A DNA stretch of 64,000 bases from an uncultured Candidatus Saccharibacteria bacterium (lineage in GTDB: Bacteria; Patescibacteriota; Saccharimonadia; Saccharimonadales; VXPC01): positions 39,198 through 103,197 of the forward strand of contig CAZHOS010000001.1 in assembly GCA_964534605.1 (NCBI GenBank), written 5' to 3'. The notes under the pieces were generated by a model. The model was not told the origin of the DNA. It worked only from the letters and a program-made list of their open reading frames with translations, and did no database searches. The first letter of the stretch is position 1. Each line of letters starts with the position of its first letter. This document shows positions 4,947 to 58,395 of this stretch, piece by piece. Position numbers and translations under genes: made by a program.

Positions 4947-7900
4947 TTAAGCCTCCCCTTCTTTCTCTACGGTGTCGTCAGCGTCTTCTGAGTTGTCCGC
5001 AATTAATTCTTCTTTCTCTACTGCATCGTCTGAGGTATCTTCTGCGAACTCGCTAGCAACGTCGTCTTCTGTTGGTGGTTGTCCGTTGTCGTCAGCAGGT
5101 ACCTGAACAGCTGGGTCTACAGTCGTCTTGCTTTTGACGGTTTCTTCGAGTAGTACTTCAGCGTCTACGGTTGTGTTCGTCTCGGCGTCAATCAAGTCTA
5201 CCTTAAGTGCAAGGCCTTGGAGTTCTTTCACTAGAACGTTAAAGCTCTCTGGTACCTTCGGACTAATGATGTCAGTCTGCTTAATGATCGACTCGTAGGC
5301 CTTAGCGCGTCCAAAGACGTCGTCGGACTTGAGCGTCAACATCTCTTGTAGTGTACTGGCAGCGCCGTAGGCTTCGAGTGCCCAGACTTCCATCTCTCCG
5401 AACCTTTGACCACCATTTTGCGCCTTACCACCAAGTGGTTGCTGGGTGACCATTGTGTATGGTCCTGTAGAACGGGCGTGGATCTTGTCGTTAGCCATGT
5501 GGTTAAGCTTGAAGACGTACATAAGCCCTAGTGTGGTGCGCTCCTTGAACGGTTCGCCTGTACGTCCGTCGAATAGCTGTTGCTTACCGTCATCTGGCAG
5601 ACCTGCTTCCTTAAGTAGCTCGGCTACCTTGTCGTTAGCAACACCGTCGAATGGCGCTGATGTAACCTTGAGGCCCAGTGCTTCTGCAGCCATACCAAGG
5701 TGAGCCTCGAAGAGCTGACCAATGTTCATACGCGATGGAACACCTAGCGGGTTAAGTAGCATGTCGACAGGACGGCCGTCTTCTGTATATGGCATGTCTT
5801 CTGCTGGTAACACACGGGCGATAACACCCTTGTTACCATGACGACCGGCTAGCTTGTCTCCAACCTGAATTTTACGTGTCTGGGCAACAAATACTTGGAT
5901 CTGCTTGAGAACACCGGCCTTCAATGTGTGGCCGTTCTCTTTACTAAAGACGCGTACACCAACAACCTTACCGTGCTTGGCGTTAGGCATACGGCGAGAG
6001 GTGTCACGAACGTCCTTGGCTTTTTCGCCAAAGATGGCGCGCAGCAGTCGCTCTTCGCTAGACAACTCTTGTTCACCCTTCGGGGTGATCTTACCAACCA
6101 AGATGTCACCAGGGTTCACCTCGGCACCGATCCTAACAACACCTTCGTCGTCTAGGTGGCGCAGGGCTTCCTCTGATACGTTAGGTATGTCGCGGGTGAT
6201 TAGCTCGGGACCAAGCTTGGTCTCGCGGACTTCGATCATGTAGTCGGTGATGTTGATGCTTGTAAAGGTATCTTCTTTAACGAGTCGGTCGCTAACAATG
6301 ATGGCATCTTCGAAGTTGTAACCGCTCCAAGGCATAAGTGCCACAAGAACGTCTTTACCGAGTGCTAGTTCGCCGTCGTCAATTGACGTACCCTCTAGAA
6401 TTACGTCGCCGGCCTTGAGTTTTTGACCGCTAGAAACCATGACACGCTGTGTCATTGCAGTACCGTTGTTACTTAGCTGGAATAGTGACGGCTTGTAGTG
6501 GGCGGTACGGCCTTTGTACTTGACGACTACTTCCTCGGCAGTTGCTTTGGTGACTTCACCATCTGCGTCTGCGTATACAATGCGTCCAGAGTTACGAGCG
6601 ATGACTTCCTCTAGTCCGGTGCCGACAACTGGTGCCTCTGGCTTGATTAGAGGGATGGCCTGCTTGGCCTGGTTAGAGCCTACAAGGCTACGAAGAACGT
6701 AGTCTTTTTCGATGAACGGGATAAGCCCGGCGCTCGAGCCAATAATCTGCTTCTTGCTGGAGTCCATGTGGGTGATTTCTTCGGCATCGTACTCACCAGC
6801 TACACCAGCTTTACGACCACGGATACGTGCATCAACAAGGAAACCGTCGTCATCAGTTTGCGTACCTGCACCTGCAATGGTAGCTGCTTGTTCTTCGTCA
6901 GAGTCTAGGTATACAGCCTTCTTGTTAAGGCGTGGCTTAACAGGCCAGGTAGCCTGATCCTTTGCCTTTTCTAGCTTCTTGGCGTCTGCTGCAGTAATAG
7001 TCTTGCCAGCCTTGACCACTACTTTACCGTCAACCTCTAGATCGACTGTAGCTATCTCGCCAATTGCATCTTTAGCGGTGACGTTGCTCTTGACTGGATA
7101 GTAAGGAGTCTCTAGGAAGCCGTACTCGTTAACACGGGCATGCATAGCCATGTTTAACACCAACCCGATGTTTGGACCCTCTGGGGTCTCGACAGGACAG
7201 ATACGTCCGTAGTGGGTTGTGTGGGCGTCACGTACTTCGAAGCCTGCGCGTTCGCGGCTAAGTCCACCTGGGCCCATAGAGCTAAGGCGTCGTTTGTGGG
7301 CAAGCTCGGATAGTGGGTTTACTTGGTCCATAAACTGACTAAGCTGCGAGCTAGCAAAGAACTCGCGAACCGCAGCTACAACTGGGCGGGCGTTGATAAG
7401 CTGGCCGGGTGTGACGGTCTCGATCTCACTCATGGACATGCGGTCTTTTGTGTTGCGCTCCATACGTAGCAAACCAACACGGAACTGGCGCTGTACAAGC
7501 TCGCCTACTAGCTTGACACGGCGGTTACTGAGGCTGTCGATGTCATCGGCGGCTTCTTGGGTGTTATTAAGACGGATAACCTCGGCAACGATGGCAACCA
7601 AGTCCTCGATACGGAGGACACGGTTCTCGGCAGTGTTAGGTACATCTAGGTCGAGACGCTTGTTGACCTTGTAGCGTCCCACACGTGAGAAGTCGAACTT
7701 CTTGTAGCTAAAGAACATGCTTTCTAGCAGTGTGCGTGCGTTATCGATAGTGGCTAAGTCGCCAGGGCGTAGTCGGCGGTAGACTTCGATAAGGGCTTCG
7801 TTAGCACCACGAGCAGTGTCTTTCTCTAGGGTGGCGTCAATATAGTTATGTTCGCCTTGGTCTACGTGCTTGAAGGCGTCTTTCATGGCAGCGTCTGTCA

Positions 7901-30650: not shown

Positions 30651-32684
30651 TCAAGTCTTCAGAGCAAGGCCATCACGCAAAAGTAATGCGTTTTGGTTAG
30701 AGTCGCGCCCCAAGAAATCACGCACAAGTACATCTGGATCGTACTCGTCGCCACGTGCCAAAACCTTGTCTCTGTACTGGGCACCGATGCTTGGGTCAAG
30801 CACTTCAGGTGCATTGGCGAATCTAGTATACATATCTGCTTCTATTGATTCTGCCCACTTGTAAGAGTAGTAGCCAGCTGCATACCCCCCAGCAAATATG
30901 TGACCAAATACATGTATTAACTGTGAGTCGGAAGGTTCTTTGGCCGGGCTAATGTCTGTACTTACTTTTTGATAAAAGTCTGTGACTGTGATGTCTGTAG
31001 TGTGGAGCTCTCGATGTAGTCGTAGGTCTGCCTCACTTAGAATAGATTGCCTTATAGTGCCGCTACATACTCTAAAATTACGCGCCTGCTTTAGCTTAGC
31101 AATAAGGTCTTTAGGTATTGGGTCGCCTGTGGCATGATGCTTGCCCATCATCGCTAGGACTTCGTCCTCCCAAACAAAATTCTCCATAATCTGTGATGGA
31201 GCCTCTACAAAGTCCCACTTGGTGGCCATCATGCTTTGCTCTTTTAGCTCTGTAGAGCTGAATGCTAGATGCATAAAATGACCAAACTCGTGCCAGATCG
31301 TCTCAACGTCGCGCATATTAAGTAGCGCCGGGCTAGACTTCGTAGGCTTGGGCATATTGCCGCAGACTAATCCCTGGTGGGGCTGGTCATAATTCCCACC
31401 TGCACGGTTAGCAACATAGAGCTGATTCATCCAGGCGCCTGGCTTTTTGCCCGGGCGTGCAAACCAGTCACACCATACGACAGCAATATGTCGCTCTTTA
31501 ACGTCAAAGATGTCGTAAACTTTGACATCATGATGCCATTTTTGCTGAACTTTATTCTCTTTAAAGCTGACCCCGTATAGCTTGCTAAGCGCCTCAAACA
31601 TGCCTGAGAGCACCTGGTTGATAGGTAGGTAGGGCTTTACATCGTCTTCTTCTACATCAAAAAGGCTTTTTTTGAACAAGTTTGCATAGTAAGCACCACT
31701 TGAGAAGACCTCGTAGCTAGGTACCGTCGCCTGATCATCCTGCTCATACTCCTGGATGAACCGTTCAAGGTCTGCGTATTCTTTGGCAGCCCCCTCCTGA
31801 TAAAGCTTGCGCATATCCTGTATGAATTGCAAGGCAATATCACCAGTTTTGGCCATTTTATTGGCAGTATTTAGATCGGCATAGTCCTTGAACCCAAGCT
31901 TTATAGCTAGCTGATGGCGTAGTTTGAGGATCTCTGATGCTATAGGCTCATTCACGCCATCGTTCCGCTCATTTACCATTTTTGAGTATGCGTCACGTGT
32001 TGTTTTTATATTAGCCTTAGACAGTACTTCAATCGATAAAGGCTGATTAAAGACAAGTGCATAACCCTTACGTCCGTCATCTTTTGCCTGTTTAGCAGCA
32101 TCCTTGATGATGTCTTTTGTAAGTCCGTCTAGGTCTTCAACGTTCTCAAGATACAGCCTTGCATCATCGTTCTTTTTGGTAACATTCTGTGAGTAAATTG
32201 TACTGAGTTCCGACAAACGTTGATTAATCTTTTTTATCTCATCTCGATCTACCTGAGGCAAAAGTATGCCACCTCGTTCGTAACTTTCTAATAAATCTTT
32301 TAGGTACCTTTTTTGGGCTGCAGTGTGATTTTCTTTATTTTGGGTGGCAACAGCCTGCAACATGTCGTAGATTCTCTTATCCGCACTCAGTTCGGTGTAA
32401 AATTCGGATATTAACTTAGTACACTCGAGGTCTACACTACTCCATGGCTCGCCCAACACACTCTCTAGGTGCGAAACTACACCGTACACGTACCCTGCTT
32501 CGTCCGACATGTCACTATGAGCTTGCACTGTATTTGCGTAATCTCTGTCTTGCTTAGCAATACTTAATATCGCTTCTAGGCGCTCCTTGGCCTCTGCGAT
32601 ATGTGCTTTTAGGGCTGGTACGGCGTCTTCTGGCTTATACTCGTCGAAGCAAAACTGGTTAATCGGTCGCTGAAAACTATTCAT
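30651..32684 (-). CDS. M3A-family zinc metallo-oligopeptidase (oligopeptidase A / peptidyl-dipeptidase Dcp-like)
   Basis: HEFGHFMH zinc site and about 680 aa of M3 fold. Start placed at the ATG at 32684 (MNSFQRPINQ...). The longer ORF to 32831 adds an unlikely N-terminus. Confidence 0.8.
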   Translation of the reverse strand: MNSFQRPINQFCFDEYKPEDAVPALKAHIAEAKERLEAILSIAKQDRDYANTVQAHSDMSDEAGYVYGVVSHLESVLGEPWSSVDLECTKLISEFYTELSADKRIYDMLQAVATQNKENHTAAQKRYLKDLLESYERGGILLPQVDRDEIKKINQRLSELSTIYSQNVTKKNDDARLYLENVEDLDGLTKDIIKDAAKQAKDDGRKGYALVFNQPLSIEVLSKANIKTTRDAYSKMVNERNDGVNEPIASEILKLRHQLAIKLGFKDYADLNTANKMAKTGDIALQFIQDMRKLYQEGAAKEYADLERFIQEYEQDDQATVPSYEVFSSGAYYANLFKKSLFDVEEDDVKPYLPINQVLSGMFEALSKLYGVSFKENKVQQKWHHDVKVYDIFDVKERHIAVVWCDWFARPGKKPGAWMNQLYVANRAGGNYDQPHQGLVCGNMPKPTKSSPALLNMRDVETIWHEFGHFMHLAFSSTELKEQSMMATKWDFVEAPSQIMENFVWEDEVLAMMGKHHATGDPIPKDLIAKLKQARNFRVCSGTIRQSILSEADLRLHRELHTTDITVTDFYQKVSTDISPAKEPSDSQLIHVFGHIFAGGYAAGYYSYKWAESIEADMYTRFANAPEVLDPSIGAQYRDKVLARGDEYDPDVLVRDFLGRDSNQNALLLRDGLALKT

Positions 32685-53562: not shown

Positions 53563-54192
53563 TTAACCAGATCTCTTGGTAGTTTGTTGGGCGCCGCAGA
53601 CGAGGCTCTGGAAGGCTTCGTCGTGCTTGCGTAGTTCTTCGTCGCTGACATCCTTGTACTCTTCATCGCAGAGTGCGATAACTTTACGGACCAGCTCTAC
53701 TGGGTCGTTGTCGAATACGACGCGCGTGCCGCTAGGCTCGTCCAGCTTTTCTAGGAGTTCTGGCACTAAGTCGGCTGTACCGCCAGAGCCCAGGAGGATA
53801 CCGCAAGGTTTGCGGGCCTCTAGCGCCGTCGTGAACTCGTGCAAGCTACCGAAGCGTCCGCCGATAGTAATAACCGCGTCACTGCTTTGCACCAGGTACA
53901 CATCGCGGCCAACGTAAGCCATGCCGGTGTAGTTAATATAATCAAACACGTCAGTCGGCAAGCGGTACTTGCGCACATGTTCGCGCAAGCTAGATGCAGG
54001 GCTAAAGCCAATACTCTGCCCACCAGCATCTACTGCACCTCGTGCACCAAAGAACGGTAGGCCGACGGTTGCGCCGGTAGTAGTTACATGCCCTGCCTTA
54101 GCGATCTCCTGCCCGATTATATAGGCTTCTGAGCAAGATCGATCAACGCTCGCGCCGCTAGCTGCACCGCTAATACAAATACTATATTTCAT
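53563..54192 (-). CDS. LOG/TIGR00725-like Rossmann-fold protein (SLOG superfamily)
   Basis: 209 aa; ISGAASGAS...TTGATVGLPFFGARGA...ITIGGRFGSLHEF resembles the LOG-family PGGxGTxxE core. Start overlaps the stop of the pilin-like gene (TAATG). Confidence 0.55.
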   Translation of the reverse strand: MKYSICISGAASGASVDRSCSEAYIIGQEIAKAGHVTTTGATVGLPFFGARGAVDAGGQSIGFSPASSLREHVRKYRLPTDVFDYINYTGMAYVGRDVYLVQSSDAVITIGGRFGSLHEFTTALEARKPCGILLGSGGTADLVPELLEKLDEPSGTRVVFDNDPVELVRKVIALCDEEYKDVSDEELRKHDEAFQSLVCGAQQTTKRSG

Positions 54193-54896
54193 TAAATCAA
54201 CTCCATCGTAAACAACATTTCTTCTGCAAGCATCCTCCTACTTTCGTCCACAACAGTTCCGTCGGGAAGTTGTTTTGACAAAAATGCTCGTGACTCCTGG
54301 CCACTATCGTGGCTAACGATAAATAGGAAATGAGGGTAATCAAAGCCTTCAGGAGGTTGATCTAGGTCATCTCCTGTAGTGCTAAAGACTCTTACGTTAG
54401 TTCCGTTGGCTCCAGCGCTAATCAAGTCGACCTCTACATAACCTTCTAGCTCTTCTATCGTAGGTCGAAGCCCTTCATCCTTACCGGGCTCATGCATAAT
54501 AAACTCAAAGAACCCCCCTATACCCCCAGGACCTTCAACCACCTGAGCTGCAACACCTTCTTCATACACCAAAGGCGTGTCATCACCACATAGACTGGAT
54601 GCCAGAGTTCCCGTACTTTCTGTGTGGCATAAAGTCCACCCATCTGGGATTCTTACACTATAAAAATCATTCTCATGCAAAAGCCACGTATCAGTTATTC
54701 TTGCTAATGCAGCCTCTCCCTCCTGGTTTGATGAACTTTCGCCTACTTGACTAGATGCTGCTGTAGGATTTTGCTCTGTCTGACTATCGTCTGATCGATT
54801 TATTGCCAAAAAACCTAAAATAGAAATGATAGCAATCAGGCCAACTACAAATACCAGTTCAACCGTACTGAAGCCTTTTTTGTTTATTGATACCAT
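54192..54896 (-). CDS. type IV pilin-like / pseudopilin protein (class III signal peptide)
   Basis: N-terminus MVSINKKG-FSTVELVFVVGLIAIISILGF is a prepilin leader followed by a hydrophobic helix. About 190-aa C-terminal domain with a Cys pair. Confidence 0.65.
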   Translation of the reverse strand: MVSINKKGFSTVELVFVVGLIAIISILGFLAINRSDDSQTEQNPTAASSQVGESSSNQEGEAALARITDTWLLHENDFYSVRIPDGWTLCHTESTGTLASSLCGDDTPLVYEEGVAAQVVEGPGGIGGFFEFIMHEPGKDEGLRPTIEELEGYVEVDLISAGANGTNVRVFSTTGDDLDQPPEGFDYPHFLFIVSHDSGQESRAFLSKQLPDGTVVDESRRMLAEEMLFTMELI

Positions 54897-54911: not shown

Positions 54912-56150
54912 TTAATCCTTAGTCAGTTTTTCTGGAGCTATGAGGTCGTTATCTAATTGCTTGAGGATCTGGTCCTCTAGAATATCTTGGCCCATGTAGC
55001 GCATAAAGACTTCGTTCCAGAGTGCCTCGCGGAAATGGTAGATCTCGCGCTTGGAATACGGCGTTTTATTCGTAAAGCTAGCAGCAACGTCCATCATATT
55101 AAGTACAACTGGGCGCTTGCCATGCATTACTCCGACATAATCCATGTCTTCCCAAAATTTTAGCTCTGGAGCTATTTGGTAAAGCACGCTTTCGGCGTGG
55201 CGCCAATGCAGGTCCTCTGGTTGGACGTGTGGCTGGAAGACTTCAGGATGATACTCATTCTCTAGCTTGCCGAAATAGCGCTGTATAACTCGCCAGTGGA
55301 CTTTATTGCCAGCCATAATTGCAGCGTCTGAGGGATCGGCAAGCAGTGTGTTTACAAATATCTCGCCAAAGTTTGGCTTGACCTGCTGCATTTTAAAGAA
55401 TGTGCTGTAGAGGCGTACTTCGTTAAGGTAATGGAAGAGGAGTGATAGCGCCCACAGCGTAATGCCTGGCAGGTGGTCTTTCTTGACTGGCAGCATAATA
55501 ATGCAGCCCATCTCTTTGCTATGGGTGATGTTGTGCTTCTTTTTCTTGACGAAACCTTCGGCCATGTCTGCCCAACGATCGGGCATAACAACAATTTCGA
55601 TCTTACGCGTTTCGAAGTCCGAGGGCTTAAGAGTCTTGTACTTCTCATTAAAAGCGTCTAGCCAGTCGCCGCCTTCGGAAAAGCGTAATGCACCAAATAG
55701 CTCAAAGATGTTCTCTTTCTTAAGCATACTGTCAACACTGCGGTAACCAAGCAACTTCATCATGCTCGGTGGTGGAGTATCGCGCAGGAACTTCTTGGCA
55801 ACGCTCTTCTTCATAACCCAACAGTCACGCGGTACGTCGACGGCCTCTTCTGCGGCCTTGATCTTTGGTATTAGCTGGCTTACGGTGTCCTTGTGTGTGC
55901 CGCCGATGGTCTTAAGCAATATATCGTTATGCTCGCTAATCTTGGCAATTAGAGCCTCGTAGAGCTCCTTGCCAGTCGTGTCGTCTGGATCGAGGCCCAG
56001 CTCTTCGAGCTTCATGCGCACTTTGCCCATTATCTCAGCTGTTAGTCGTACATCTACACTGGGGTTACCACTCGTTTTTTCTAGCTGCCTAAGGCTGATA
56101 GAAAATAGTGGTTCTTCTGCAGCCAGCAGATCTGATATAAGTTTACTCAT
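54912..56150 (-). CDS. hypothetical cytoplasmic protein (412 aa), first gene of the pilin-like/LOG-like operon
   Basis: No TM segments and no motif recognised. Lies 15 nt upstream of the pilin-like gene and 38 nt downstream of pfkB. Confidence 0.45.
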   Translation of the reverse strand: MSKLISDLLAAEEPLFSISLRQLEKTSGNPSVDVRLTAEIMGKVRMKLEELGLDPDDTTGKELYEALIAKISEHNDILLKTIGGTHKDTVSQLIPKIKAAEEAVDVPRDCWVMKKSVAKKFLRDTPPPSMMKLLGYRSVDSMLKKENIFELFGALRFSEGGDWLDAFNEKYKTLKPSDFETRKIEIVVMPDRWADMAEGFVKKKKHNITHSKEMGCIIMLPVKKDHLPGITLWALSLLFHYLNEVRLYSTFFKMQQVKPNFGEIFVNTLLADPSDAAIMAGNKVHWRVIQRYFGKLENEYHPEVFQPHVQPEDLHWRHAESVLYQIAPELKFWEDMDYVGVMHGKRPVVLNMMDVAASFTNKTPYSKREIYHFREALWNEVFMRYMGQDILEDQILKQLDNDLIAPEKLTKD

Positions 56151-57153: not shown

Positions 57154-57197
57154 GCCTAAATAATAAAGCTTATGGCATGTCTGTACAAACTAAATCC

Positions 57198-57233
57198 ACC
57201 AGTCAAATTTCACGATCGTGAAATTTGACTGGT
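57198..57233. promoter_or_regulatory. 36-bp perfect palindrome overlapping the 3' end of the regulator gene, 45 bp upstream of the pfkB start
   Basis: ACCAGTCAAATTTCACGATCGTGAAATTTGACTGGT; its 32-bp core is identical to the palindrome at 57751..57782. Confidence 0.6.
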
Positions 57234-57746
57234 ATTGAATCCTTCTATCTCTTCGGCTCTGACGTATACAATGTCACCCTTCCCGCCGTAAGCATCAACC
57301 AGAGATCTAAATTGCTGCAGGCACTCGTACTTATGTGCCCACACACTTTTTTGCAGCTGGATCATGCCTAGTAGTTTTATTTGCCGTCGAACTGCATCAC
57401 GCAGAGGTCTATTATCTTCCGGTATATCGAACATCATGATTCTCCATTTACCGTCCCATACGTCCGGCTTGGTGATGGCCTGCAGTTTAAGCTTGGCGAG
57501 TTTACGGAGTCCTTTTTTTGTTATTTCATACGACTCGTCATTTTTCTTACTTATATACCCAGACCTGTACGCACTGTCGAACTTACTATTAAGTTTAGAT
57601 CTGCTGTAGCCAACACTTGCATTTGAGTTAAACAGCCCGTCTATTAAGCTGCGACGCTTCGACTTGTCATCACTTAATTTTGATCTGACATTATCTAGTA
57701 GCTGGAGTAAGACTAACTCTCCTGTTCGTGAACTCATGAGATTCAT
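57210..57746 (-). CDS. putative transcriptional regulator with PaaX-C-like C-terminal domain
   Basis: 178 aa from ATG 57746 (MNLMSSRTGELVLLQLLDN...). C-terminal WDGKWRIMMFDIPEDNRPLRDAVRRQIKLLGMIQLQKSVW resembles the PaaX C-terminal domain pattern. N-terminal region is wHTH-like. Its last 6 codons and stop lie inside the 3' palindrome, and the 5' palindrome abuts the start codon. Confidence 0.45.
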   Translation of the reverse strand: MNLMSSRTGELVLLQLLDNVRSKLSDDKSKRRSLIDGLFNSNASVGYSRSKLNSKFDSAYRSGYISKKNDESYEITKKGLRKLAKLKLQAITKPDVWDGKWRIMMFDIPEDNRPLRDAVRRQIKLLGMIQLQKSVWAHKYECLQQFRSLVDAYGGKGDIVYVRAEEIEGFNTSQISRS

Positions 57747-57786
57747 TTTACAGTCAAATTTCACGATCGTGAAATTTGACTGTAAA
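57747..57786. promoter_or_regulatory. 40-bp perfect palindrome abutting the regulator start codon
   Basis: TTTACAGTCAAATTTCACGATCGTGAAATTTGACTGTAAA; shares the 32-bp core with 57198..57233 but has different palindromic extensions. Confidence 0.6.
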
Positions 57787-57888
57787 TATTGGTTTTGAAG
57801 ATTTTTTTGTTCTGTTTCTGATGCATATTATGTCTGAATAGTTGTATTTTTTGCAAAATTCTTGGCATAAGCTTTATCGTTTGTTACA

Positions 57889-58395
57889 GTGAGATTAATG
57901 TCACAAAAATATAAAAATAAAGAATACCCACCTTTCAAGGCAACTATTATTGGTGCACCCGGCCAAGAACCCTTTAAAGGAAGTGAGCTGTTAGCCGCGG
58001 CAATGACCGTAGAGGGTCTAGGCATTACTCTGAGTAAACGCATGGCTAAAGTAGCCAAAGACATCGGAGGGGTTTCTTTGAGTGACGAGAGAGCATTTTT
58101 TACGATAGGACTTGGCGAAGGTGTCTCTGTTGGGGTGTTTGACGATGACTACATGGGATTAGGATGGACCGAGGTGAGCACTATGCCAGCAAGATTAAAT
58201 ATTATGTGTGAGAGATCCTATGCACATCTTTGCTGCGTGCCTACTGGCGACAACAACAGGATTACTCCTGGCAATAATGTCGGGACCCTAAAATTAATCA
58301 CTAGCGCAGTCAGGCTGCTGAGGAATAACCCAGACTACGAAGACAGGATAGATCCTAAAGAACTACTCCCATCTGTTGCTGATCGTATAGGTTAA
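57889..58395 (+). CDS. hypothetical protein
   Basis: 168 aa, no recognisable motif. Plus-strand gene between the regulator and the aldolase. Confidence 0.4.
   Translation: MRLMSQKYKNKEYPPFKATIIGAPGQEPFKGSELLAAAMTVEGLGITLSKRMAKVAKDIGGVSLSDERAFFTIGLGEGVSVGVFDDDYMGLGWTEVSTMPARLNIMCERSYAHLCCVPTGDNNRITPGNNVGTLKLITSAVRLLRNNPDYEDRIDPKELLPSVADRIG

Follow-up and report, generated by a model that had tools for sequence, protein, structure and literature searches.

The locus and its palindrome pair

A 64,000-nucleotide stretch of contig CAZHOS010000001.1, from an uncultured Candidatus Saccharibacteria bacterium (hereafter the window, at its full length), contains a small gene that is enclosed by two copies of one palindrome. 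This unit of palindrome, gene and palindrome is 589 nt long (hereafter the cassette) and lies among genes annotated as aldolase, transketolase, ribulose-phosphate epimerase and PfkB-family kinase (pfkB). The two copies share the 32-nt sequence CAGTCAAATTTCACGATCGTGAAATTTGACTG, located at 57200-57231 and 57751-57782 with 0 mismatches, and the spacing between them is 519 bp. Flanks of differing sequence (ACCAG...CTGGT and TTTACAG...CTGTAAA) lengthen the copies to perfect palindromes of 36 and 40 nt, respectively (Table 1).

No third copy of the 32-nt sequence was identified in the window at up to 3 mismatches, and 100 shuffles gave 0 matches. A window-wide scan for perfect palindromes whose arms measure 10 nt or more recovers just these two in 64,000 bases, and the 14-nt half-site, at up to 2 mismatches, has a sole extra match at 31513, outside any palindrome. 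The pair is real and far beyond chance. An earlier reading of the stretch, made without database searches (hereafter the sequence-only reading), had reported a 32-bp core present twice and no more than twice in the window and extended by two different flanks; the mismatch search, the shuffles and the flanks themselves bear this out.

The same reading correctly placed the upstream copy at the start of the gene: the last base of the 40-nt palindrome directly precedes ATG 57746. The downstream copy contains the stop codon, as it had also stated, although the counts need correction. The 36-nt palindrome encodes the final 7 codons of the gene (not six) plus the stop, with the TGA (57210-57212) just 3' of the dyad, and 44 nt (not 45) separate it from the ATG of pfkB (57153), which lies on the same strand as the cassette gene.

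Table 1. Coordinates of the cassette and associated features in the window
Feature	Position	Strand	Remarks
Palindrome-bracketed gene	57210..57746	-	ATG 57746, second in-frame ATG 57737; 178 aa or 175 aa
Upstream palindrome TTTACAGTCAAATTTCACGATCGTGAAATTTGACTGTAAA, 40 nt, perfect	57747..57786	none	Abuts ATG 57746; proposed autoregulatory operator
Downstream palindrome ACCAGTCAAATTTCACGATCGTGAAATTTGACTGGT, 36 nt, perfect	57198..57233	none	3' boundary of cassette; probably second binding site
Promoter-like site: TTCACG (57773-57768), 17 nt, TAAAAT (57750-57745)	57745..57773	-	Predicted, consensus scan only
Insertion extent, without counterpart in relatives	57185..57835	none	Approximate; from gene order in L131-L137 and similarity to L131

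The encoded protein combines a winged helix with a Cas2-like domain

In Pfam, residues 96-171 of the encoded protein match PaaX_M (PF20803, the central Cas2-like domain) at 71.1 bits (cutoff 24; E 8e-20). The N-terminal part gives only a weak winged-helix match, to HTH_45 (E 0.029), at residues 62-87. There is no Pfam match to the PaaX_C effector domain (PF08223), and the 178-aa protein stops at the Cas2-like domain. The NCBIfam PaaX equivalog TIGR02277 reaches 30.5 bits, below its cutoff of 264.55, and the NCBIfam cas2 model 20.5 bits, slightly under its cutoff of 24.5. PADLOC returned weak Cas2 matches only and PHROGs nothing useful; no HUH or other known transposase domain was identified in the Pfam, NCBIfam, PADLOC and PHROGs scans of the protein.

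The AlphaFold2 model (mean predicted local distance difference test score 87.8) has helices at residues 3-25, 31-39 and 49-61 and then a two-strand wing at 65-75; a linker helix joins this part to a beta-alpha-beta-beta-alpha-beta domain. Compared with solved structures in Foldseek, the model has E. coli PaaX (8A39) as its top match and Rv0674 (3KFW) as the next, followed by many Cas2 chains (probability 0.9-1.0). A family-profile search also places 8A39 first (E 6e-6), aligned to the PaaX winged helix, and then the centromere binders AspA and TubR. The helix-rich N-terminus noted in the sequence-only reading corresponds to a winged helix. Its description of the protein as a PaaX-C-like regulator holds for the kind of protein, a winged helix joined to PaaX_M, and not for the label, since the C-terminal motif that it cited (WDGKWRIMMFDIPE...LQKSVW) is part of PaaX_M, not PaaX_C, in Pfam.

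All 225 family members compared have D107 and S134; Q132 occurs in 223 of the 225, and R116 is nearly invariant. In the alignment, the FDIPE and QKSVW motifs correspond to the Cas2 signatures, the Asp of beta-1 and Q-x-S-V-F, that are lost in E. coli PaaX. Taken together, the enclosed protein is probably a DNA-binding protein of the PaaX type, reduced to a minimal two-domain form.

Gene and palindrome are paired across the family

Homologues of the cassette protein are at most 44% identical to it, and all of those with a taxon name are Patescibacteria (Candidate Phyla Radiation, CPR). The family comprises 7,044 representative clusters at 50% identity (E <=0.001). One 33%-identical relative (L001, Candidatus Gribaldobacteria according to its NCBI source) has the palindrome CGTTTAATTCGTGCGATCGCACGAATTAAACG twice upstream and once downstream of its gene, with other arm sequence and the same CGATCG centre as in the window.

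We gathered 80 metagenome loci by protein pattern alone, without reference to palindromes, and these contain 75 non-redundant family genes. Palindromes were counted if they were at least 20 bp long, had the centre CGATCG, CGGCCG, CGACCG/CGGTCG or CTATAG, and lay in the upstream or downstream zone of the gene. Such a palindrome stands beside 54 of the 75 genes and on both sides of 28. Their density near family genes is 1.65 per kb versus 0.034 per kb elsewhere in the same loci, and a stricter palindrome scan of the family loci still gives a ninefold excess near the genes. The arms are gene-specific and up to 32 nt long (L059 has a 64-bp perfect palindrome). The nearest protein neighbour has the same centre class in 51 of 66 cases, compared with 29% by chance (permutation p = 0.0005); because centre class tracks protein relatedness, each protein travels with its own palindrome.

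This family-wide pattern is robust, and the palindrome is very probably the recognition site of the protein that it encloses, co-inheritance of the two being the main argument. No gene neighbour recurs across 82 loci of family members, and some genomes hold several palindrome types together with paralogues.

Half-sites aligned from the dyad have an invariant centre, AT-rich positions 5-12 and specific, G-containing positions at about 13-19. Between the upstream and downstream copies of the same gene, differences are rare or absent at positions 1-4 and low again at 10-18, and they are commonest, and asymmetric, at positions 5-9. Such a bipartite half-site would suit a dimer in contact with the centre and with two outer boxes that lie about 30 bp from each other. 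The inverted repeat bound by E. coli PaaX, TGATTC-N27-GAATCA, measures 39 bp (PMC9493321). By analogy, the span of the window palindromes would fit this operator geometry, the 40-bp copy, which overlaps the predicted promoter, being a putative counterpart of the published box.

Three relatives that consist of the Cas2 domain only (107-109 aa; L015, L016) have shorter palindromes of 22-30 bp with the inner core AAATTTCACGATCGTGAAATTT. These three cases hint at a division of labour in which the inner core is read by the Cas2-like dimer together with its basic N-terminal segment, and the outer arms by the winged helices. Correlations between domain identity and sub-site similarity are weak and non-discriminating (rho 0.02-0.16) and do not confirm this assignment of core and arms.

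The upstream copy overlaps a predicted promoter

The -35 hexamer and the spacer of the predicted cassette promoter lie inside the 40-nt palindrome, whose dyad would be at about -28.5. The -10 hexamer ends 7 nt before ATG 57737, so that a leaderless transcript is predicted. In the consensus scan, pfkB and the open reading frame (ORF) at 57898-58395 share this leaderless-type promoter layout. Upstream gaps of 50 nt or more precede 34 genes of the window; in 11 of these genes a -10-like hexamer stands 5-9 nt ahead of the start, and in only 8 is there a Shine-Dalgarno-like motif. Frequent leaderless mRNAs are suggested for this genome (for example, at 57160-57153 and 57890-57898).

A similar geometry is found elsewhere in the family. 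L015 and L016 have an extended -10 (TGnTAGAAT or TGnTAAGAT) right after the upstream palindrome, with the dyad at about -29.5, and among 49 upstream palindromes a -10-like hexamer starts at a distance of 14-17 nt from the dyad in 18 cases on the gene side, compared with 7 on the far side. In one subclass TATAAT stands at the arm edge, with the ATG 6-9 nt further on. From this arrangement we infer that the upstream copy is an autoregulatory operator, at which binding would occlude RNA polymerase and give negative autoregulation. The autoregulated repressor of the sequence-only reading fits the predicted promoter overlap and its recurring geometry, and its repressor-operator idea probably stands for the upstream copy and for the pairing of protein and site.

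The cassette is a lineage-specific insertion in a conserved glycolytic locus

Homologues of pfkB were found at 85, 81, 80, 78, 70, 68 and 65% identity, in relatives labelled Saccharimonadales or Patescibacteria, whereas the best homologue of the cassette protein is only 44% identical. Six relatives have the conserved order ribulose-phosphate epimerase, transketolase N, transketolase C, a variable gene, aldolase and pfkB. As in the window, a 412-aa gene directly follows pfkB in the three closest of them, and other genes intervene in the three more distant ones. The gap between aldolase and pfkB is 0-3 nt in four of the six; in L131 and L133 a small antisense ORF lies between the two genes.

None of the six relatives has a PaaX_M gene at the aldolase-pfkB junction, and the sequence of the junction in the three closest (L131, L132, L133) contains no palindrome. 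On the pfkB side the window resembles L131 up to about 57180, and on the other side the resemblance begins again at about 57840. The boundaries of the insertion are approximate, as the intergenic DNA has diverged, and no direct repeats or target duplication are seen flanking the palindromes. Because the six relatives lack the cassette, the unit is an insertion and probably not a dedicated regulator of pfkB. The sequence-only reading had offered a mobile module as its second choice, and this gains support from the absence of the whole unit at the orthologous junction.

The ORF at 57898-58395 (+ strand, 165 aa) has no match in Pfam, NCBIfam, PADLOC or PHROGs. A weak homologue (E 6e-4) occupies the same position in L131, and four other relatives have none. 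The ORF resembles a fast-evolving antisense reading frame older than the cassette. The most economical history has two steps: an antisense ORF splits the aldolase-pfkB operon, and the cassette then enters the divergent promoter region, in the lineage of the window only.

Natural transformation is a possible vehicle for the cassette. We also considered phage carriage and rejected it, since no family member was found among 2.9 million viral contigs, where the 16-mer had only 7 matches.

The downstream copy probably closes the cassette

In 20 of 54 family cases, the downstream palindrome begins at most 3 nt from the stop codon (median gap about 12 nt). The gene that follows it is convergent, on the opposite strand, in 28 of 49 loci; the downstream copy is therefore part of the cassette, not a general operator of the following gene. 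Its probable role is that of a second binding site at the closing end of the cassette, where it may serve as a loop partner, a roadblock or a boundary.

This bears on the proposal of the sequence-only reading that the protein is a dedicated repressor of the pfkB kinase and pilin-like genes, with the downstream palindrome as the pfkB operator. The copy does lie shortly before pfkB and on its strand, and a promoter-like site for pfkB (57187-57160) starts 10 nt past the palindrome. Relative to this site, however, the dyad would be at about -62, outside the polymerase footprint, compared with -28.5 for the upstream copy. Moreover, neighbours of family genes are not conserved, the following gene is so often convergent, and the cassette-free relatives have aldolase and pfkB adjacent or nearly so. 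Given that adjacency before the insertion, a dedicated repressor of the kinase and pilin-like operon is unlikely, and we consider this reading quite improbable.

The palindromes could also act at the RNA level only, as transcript hairpins (terminators or 5' and 3' stabilisers) that insulate the gene without recognition by a protein. The downstream copy folds as a 17-pair hairpin, both copies form 17-18 pairs with z-scores of -4.5 to -5.9, and a terminator scan flags both, with weak tails (GATTTAGTTT, TATTGGTTTT). Mismatches compatible with G-U pairing on the sense strand of downstream copies are in slight excess (29 versus 14), and the compensated changes between arms described below would likewise suit a hairpin. 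However, T is not enriched after the family downstream copies (mean 2.7 T per 8 nt after, versus 3.1 A per 8 nt before). The centre is self-complementary or constrained as R-Y (CGRYCG), which a hairpin loop does not need, and copies are identical within one genome and specific to the adjacent protein. No Rfam family exceeds its threshold; there are sub-threshold matches to generic hairpins (miRNA precursor) only. In the genome bin WY3.bin152 (L008 7540-7680, L033 1000-1050, L030 4460-4520), solo and cassette palindromes adjoin separate canonical terminators, each a hairpin plus T-run. A purely RNA-level function is thus very improbable. A role as terminators as such appears unlikely, given the missing T-run enrichment, the weak G-U bias and the canonical terminators beside solo copies; the downstream copy may still contribute to 3'-end formation.

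Solo copies of the palindrome in other genomes

We searched for exact matches to the 18-mer core ATTTCACGATCGTGAAAT in a collection with one genome per species, in which the genome of the window is not among the carriers. There are 44 loci, versus about 9 expected by chance, mostly in Patescibacteria bins. With their flanks they form perfect palindromes of 30-46 bp; the outer arms agree among the copies of one genome and vary from genome to genome. In WY3.bin152 six copies are spread over four contigs, and two of the six enclose the family gene of that bin. No genome in the collection has more than six exact-core copies, a count in which diverged copies may have been missed. A family gene is adjacent at 11 loci. 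Solo copies make up the remainder, with about 4 in convergent, about 4 in divergent and about 10 in tandem spacers. Their neighbours encode SecA, TrpRS/TyrRS, SerRS, SpoU, DNA polymerase III delta', FtsX, TsaD, a ComF-like protein, UvrC, def/fmt and a DsbA-like protein, of which only SecA recurs (3 loci).

A coherent regulon was rejected as an explanation of the solo copies on account of these unrelated housekeeping neighbours and the lack of conserved neighbours of family genes. Decayed cassettes were rejected also: tblastn at 25 solo loci found no real gene remnants, one of its two weak matches being a palindrome-encoded peptide and the other noise. No target-site duplications are visible at solo copies. 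For the sequence-only reading, many dispersed copies unlinked to the gene would have argued against a dedicated operator; such copies do exist in other genomes, with none extra in the window, and this part of its proposal is weakened.

Low-copy, dispersed, intergenic sites that are independent of orientation could alternatively serve chromosome architecture, with the protein as their binder, in fork arrest, segregation or the marking of domain boundaries (as in Tus-Ter, RTP-Ter, ParB-parS or AspA-like systems). The winged helix matches AspA and TubR after PaaX, and the gene adjoins its own sites, as the tus gene adjoins TerB. Nevertheless, several palindrome types and paralogues coexist in some genomes and close relatives dispense with the cassette altogether. 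We regard this as the least probable of the explanations considered here.

Two solo palindromes in one Uhrbacteria genome (L026 at about 5805-5835 and L046 at about 6600-6630) share about 30 nt of extra flank, TTTTTAATTGAAnTTnAGGAACAAAA, so that some solo copies, at least, belong to a longer repeated unit. Three loci (L019 3498-3621, L035 3416-3539, L049 2949-3072) have the same pair of different 38-bp perfect palindromes, 86 bp apart, with ACGATCGT centres and identical flanks. The bins are assigned to Saccharibacteria, Bdellovibrio and Alphaproteobacteria, and the identity reflects either mis-binning or a shared element.

A self-regulating DNA-binding cassette is the favoured interpretation

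We favour the interpretation that the unit is an acquired, self-regulating DNA-binding cassette, with a probability of roughly 0.55. The repeats, the fold of the protein, the linkage of gene-specific palindromes across the family, the compensated symmetry and the absence from the orthologous locus of relatives are direct observations; DNA binding, repression, the promoter with its leaderless start and the part played by the downstream copy are inferred. The product is a minimal PaaX-type protein, with a winged helix and a Cas2-fold dimerisation domain and without the effector domain, whose dimer would recognise a palindrome of about 36-40 bp at both ends of the gene. Binding at the upstream copy, which covers the -35 and the spacer, would repress transcription of the gene itself. 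The downstream copy, on the stop codon, would be a second site and a hairpin; it might block transcription or take part in a loop, and it may insulate the promoter that pfkB already had. The cassette was inserted between pfkB and the small antisense ORF, in a divergent promoter region and in this lineage only, and would not be a dedicated sugar-kinase regulator.

Several observations weigh against this interpretation. The predicted promoter matches the consensus at 9 of 12 positions. Solo copies occur in all types of spacer beside unrelated housekeeping genes, unlike a normal regulon. The invariant Cas2-type Asp and the Q-x-S-V motif may indicate an activity other than dimerisation. Perfect symmetry over 36-64 bp is more than a dimer with one winged helix per subunit normally constrains. 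Finally, comparing one upstream-downstream pair per gene in 32 genes, we found 25 differences that are compensated in both arms, versus about 2 expected if the arms were independent, and 76 that are uncompensated. Symmetric changes are seen in the window, where the two copies continue into different paired flanks (TTTACAG...CTGTAAA and ACCAG...CTGGT), in WY3.bin152, where one solo copy differs by G-to-T and C-to-A, and in the Uhrbacteria genome, where two copies differ by C-to-T and G-to-A. As recognition alone does not explain compensated changes between copies that serve one protein, they point to intrastrand pairing at some stage, in a cruciform, in a hairpin of single-stranded DNA or RNA, or through self-correction during repair. 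They also back the claim of the sequence-only reading that the symmetry itself is selected, and it is mainly this signal that keeps the rival explanations open.

The strongest of these rivals, although we consider it unlikely, is a selfish system built on the Cas2 fold and analogous to repetitive extragenic palindromic (REP) elements and their REP-associated tyrosine transposases (RAYT). Its protein would recognise the palindromes, as hairpin or cruciform, and nick, mobilise or maintain them, with the solo copies as progeny. Compensated arm changes would suit such a system, and it would also account for a cassette that is present or absent as a unit and has a best homologue of 44% although the flanking genes have homologues of 85%. 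Solo copies that are identical within a genome (six on four contigs in WY3.bin152), differ between genomes and occupy every type of intergenic spacer, beside housekeeping genes and canonical terminators, fit as well, as does the Cas2-type Asp107, invariant in all 225 members. On the other hand, copy number is low (two in the 64-kb window, at most six with the exact core per genome found), neither target-site duplications nor gene remnants (at 25 solo copies) are visible, and the family is absent from the viral contigs. The protein has no HUH or other known transposase domain in the scans, and mid-arm mismatches are tolerated at positions 5-9, a poor fit to a hairpin substrate.

A broader form of this idea is that thousands of CPR lineages contain semi-autonomous cassettes of a kind not described before, whose Cas2-fold protein, still with the catalytic-type Asp of Cas2, recognises its own flanking perfect palindromes, possibly nicks, copies or mobilises them, and seeds the solo copies. 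We hold it to be distinctly unlikely. Should a REP/RAYT-like system on the Cas2 fold be confirmed, sequence-specific recognition of nucleic acids would be assigned to a domain of the Cas2 family for the first time, and the finding could bear on the association of Cas2 with palindromic repeats.

Relation to known systems and significance

The self-regulating cassette that we favour is closest overall to PaaX, the phenylacetyl-CoA-responsive repressor of E. coli and Pseudomonas (8A39; PF07848, PF20803, PF08223). Like PaaX, the cassette protein has an N-terminal winged helix followed by a Cas2-like dimerisation domain, and autoregulation through an inverted-repeat operator of about 39 bp in PaaX has a putative counterpart here. 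Unlike PaaX, it has 178 aa rather than 316, no C-terminal effector domain and an equivalog score far below the cutoff (30.5 versus 264.55 bits), and it retains FDIPE and QKSVW. The site also differs, being fully palindromic, with a CGRYCG centre, and present on both sides of the gene. No paa genes are among the annotated genes around the cassette (aldolase, transketolase, ribulose-phosphate epimerase, PfkB kinase), and the cassette family is essentially confined to CPR/Patescibacteria.

With Cas2 the protein shares the ferredoxin-like fold, the Asp that ends beta-1 and the Q-x-S-V-F/W motif, and some family members pass the Pfam Cas2 threshold (L030, for example, with 24.9 versus 23.8 bits). 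In Cas1-Cas2 complexes the Cas2 dimer lies along duplex DNA. Unlike Cas2, the cassette protein is fused to a winged helix and its gene is enclosed by two palindromes, not associated with a repeat-spacer array. The window contains no array resembling clustered regularly interspaced short palindromic repeats (CRISPR), its tandem repeats being two short two-copy repeats only, and there is no recurrent neighbour gene in the 82 loci, where cas1 was not searched for directly.

As in REP/RAYT (TnpA-REP) systems, a palindromic element stands on both sides of the gene, and extragenic solo copies, genome-specific and uniform within a genome, often lie by terminators and between convergent genes. In contrast to those systems, the protein is not an HUH/Y1 transposase, copies number in units and not hundreds, and the palindromes are perfect, 30-64 bp long and loopless. 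Tus-TerB, RTP-Ter, AspA and TubR resemble the cassette as small dimeric winged-helix proteins with a palindrome at their own promoter and few sites elsewhere; they lack the Cas2-fold domain, and we know of none that is bracketed on both sides. The sites are also unlike integron attC, an imperfect hairpin with R and L boxes at the 3' end only that occurs in arrays next to intI, in that they are perfect, identical and on both sides. Cas2-like genes have been reported in integron cassettes (PMC3710099). A full-text literature search of incomplete coverage found no description of the present arrangement.

CPR/Patescibacteria have tiny genomes, few recognisable regulators and almost no experimental genetics, and protein-site pairs deduced from comparative data offer a tractable entry to their gene control. 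As a natural library, the family would supply orthogonal repressor-operator pairs whose sites are very long and specific. It adds to the PaaX architecture a minimal form of two domains in which the Cas2 signature residues are kept, and it lets one ask whether DNA sequence could be read by a Cas2-fold dimer itself. The gain of a cassette at a conserved glycolytic junction and the solo palindromes suggest a mode of small-element turnover in streamlined genomes.

Further features of the window and of family loci

An inverted repeat of 20 nt (57158-57177 and 57863-57882, 85% complementary) was considered as the ends of the cassette and rejected, as it sits in two pre-existing promoters. Its arms share CATAAGCTTTAT and lie within the divergent, leaderless-type promoter-like sites of pfkB and the ORF at 57898-58395. 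Allowing up to 1 mismatch, the window has 6 matches to the core ATAAGCTTTAT, versus 1.67 expected, a marginal enrichment, and the repeat may be a shared promoter or regulatory motif or due to chance.

Downstream of pfkB, the 412-aa protein (54912-56150, - strand) has no family match and, as it directly follows pfkB in the closest relatives (L131-L133), is probably a conserved partner of the kinase. The gene that the sequence-only reading called pilin-like (54192-54896, - strand, 234 aa) encodes a hydrophobic N-terminus resembling that of type IV pilins, FSTVELVFVVGLIAIISI, and has no Pfam match.

In L040, a 44-bp perfect palindrome of the same class (1142-1185) lies inside a long ORF truncated by the end of the contig; its position is a linker-like region that follows an N-terminal segment resembling a helix-turn-helix. 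L057 has a canonical parS-like palindrome, TGTTTCACGTGAAACA, at 2946-2975, about 700 bp from its family gene, and the half-site of this palindrome resembles TTTCAC of the window palindrome.

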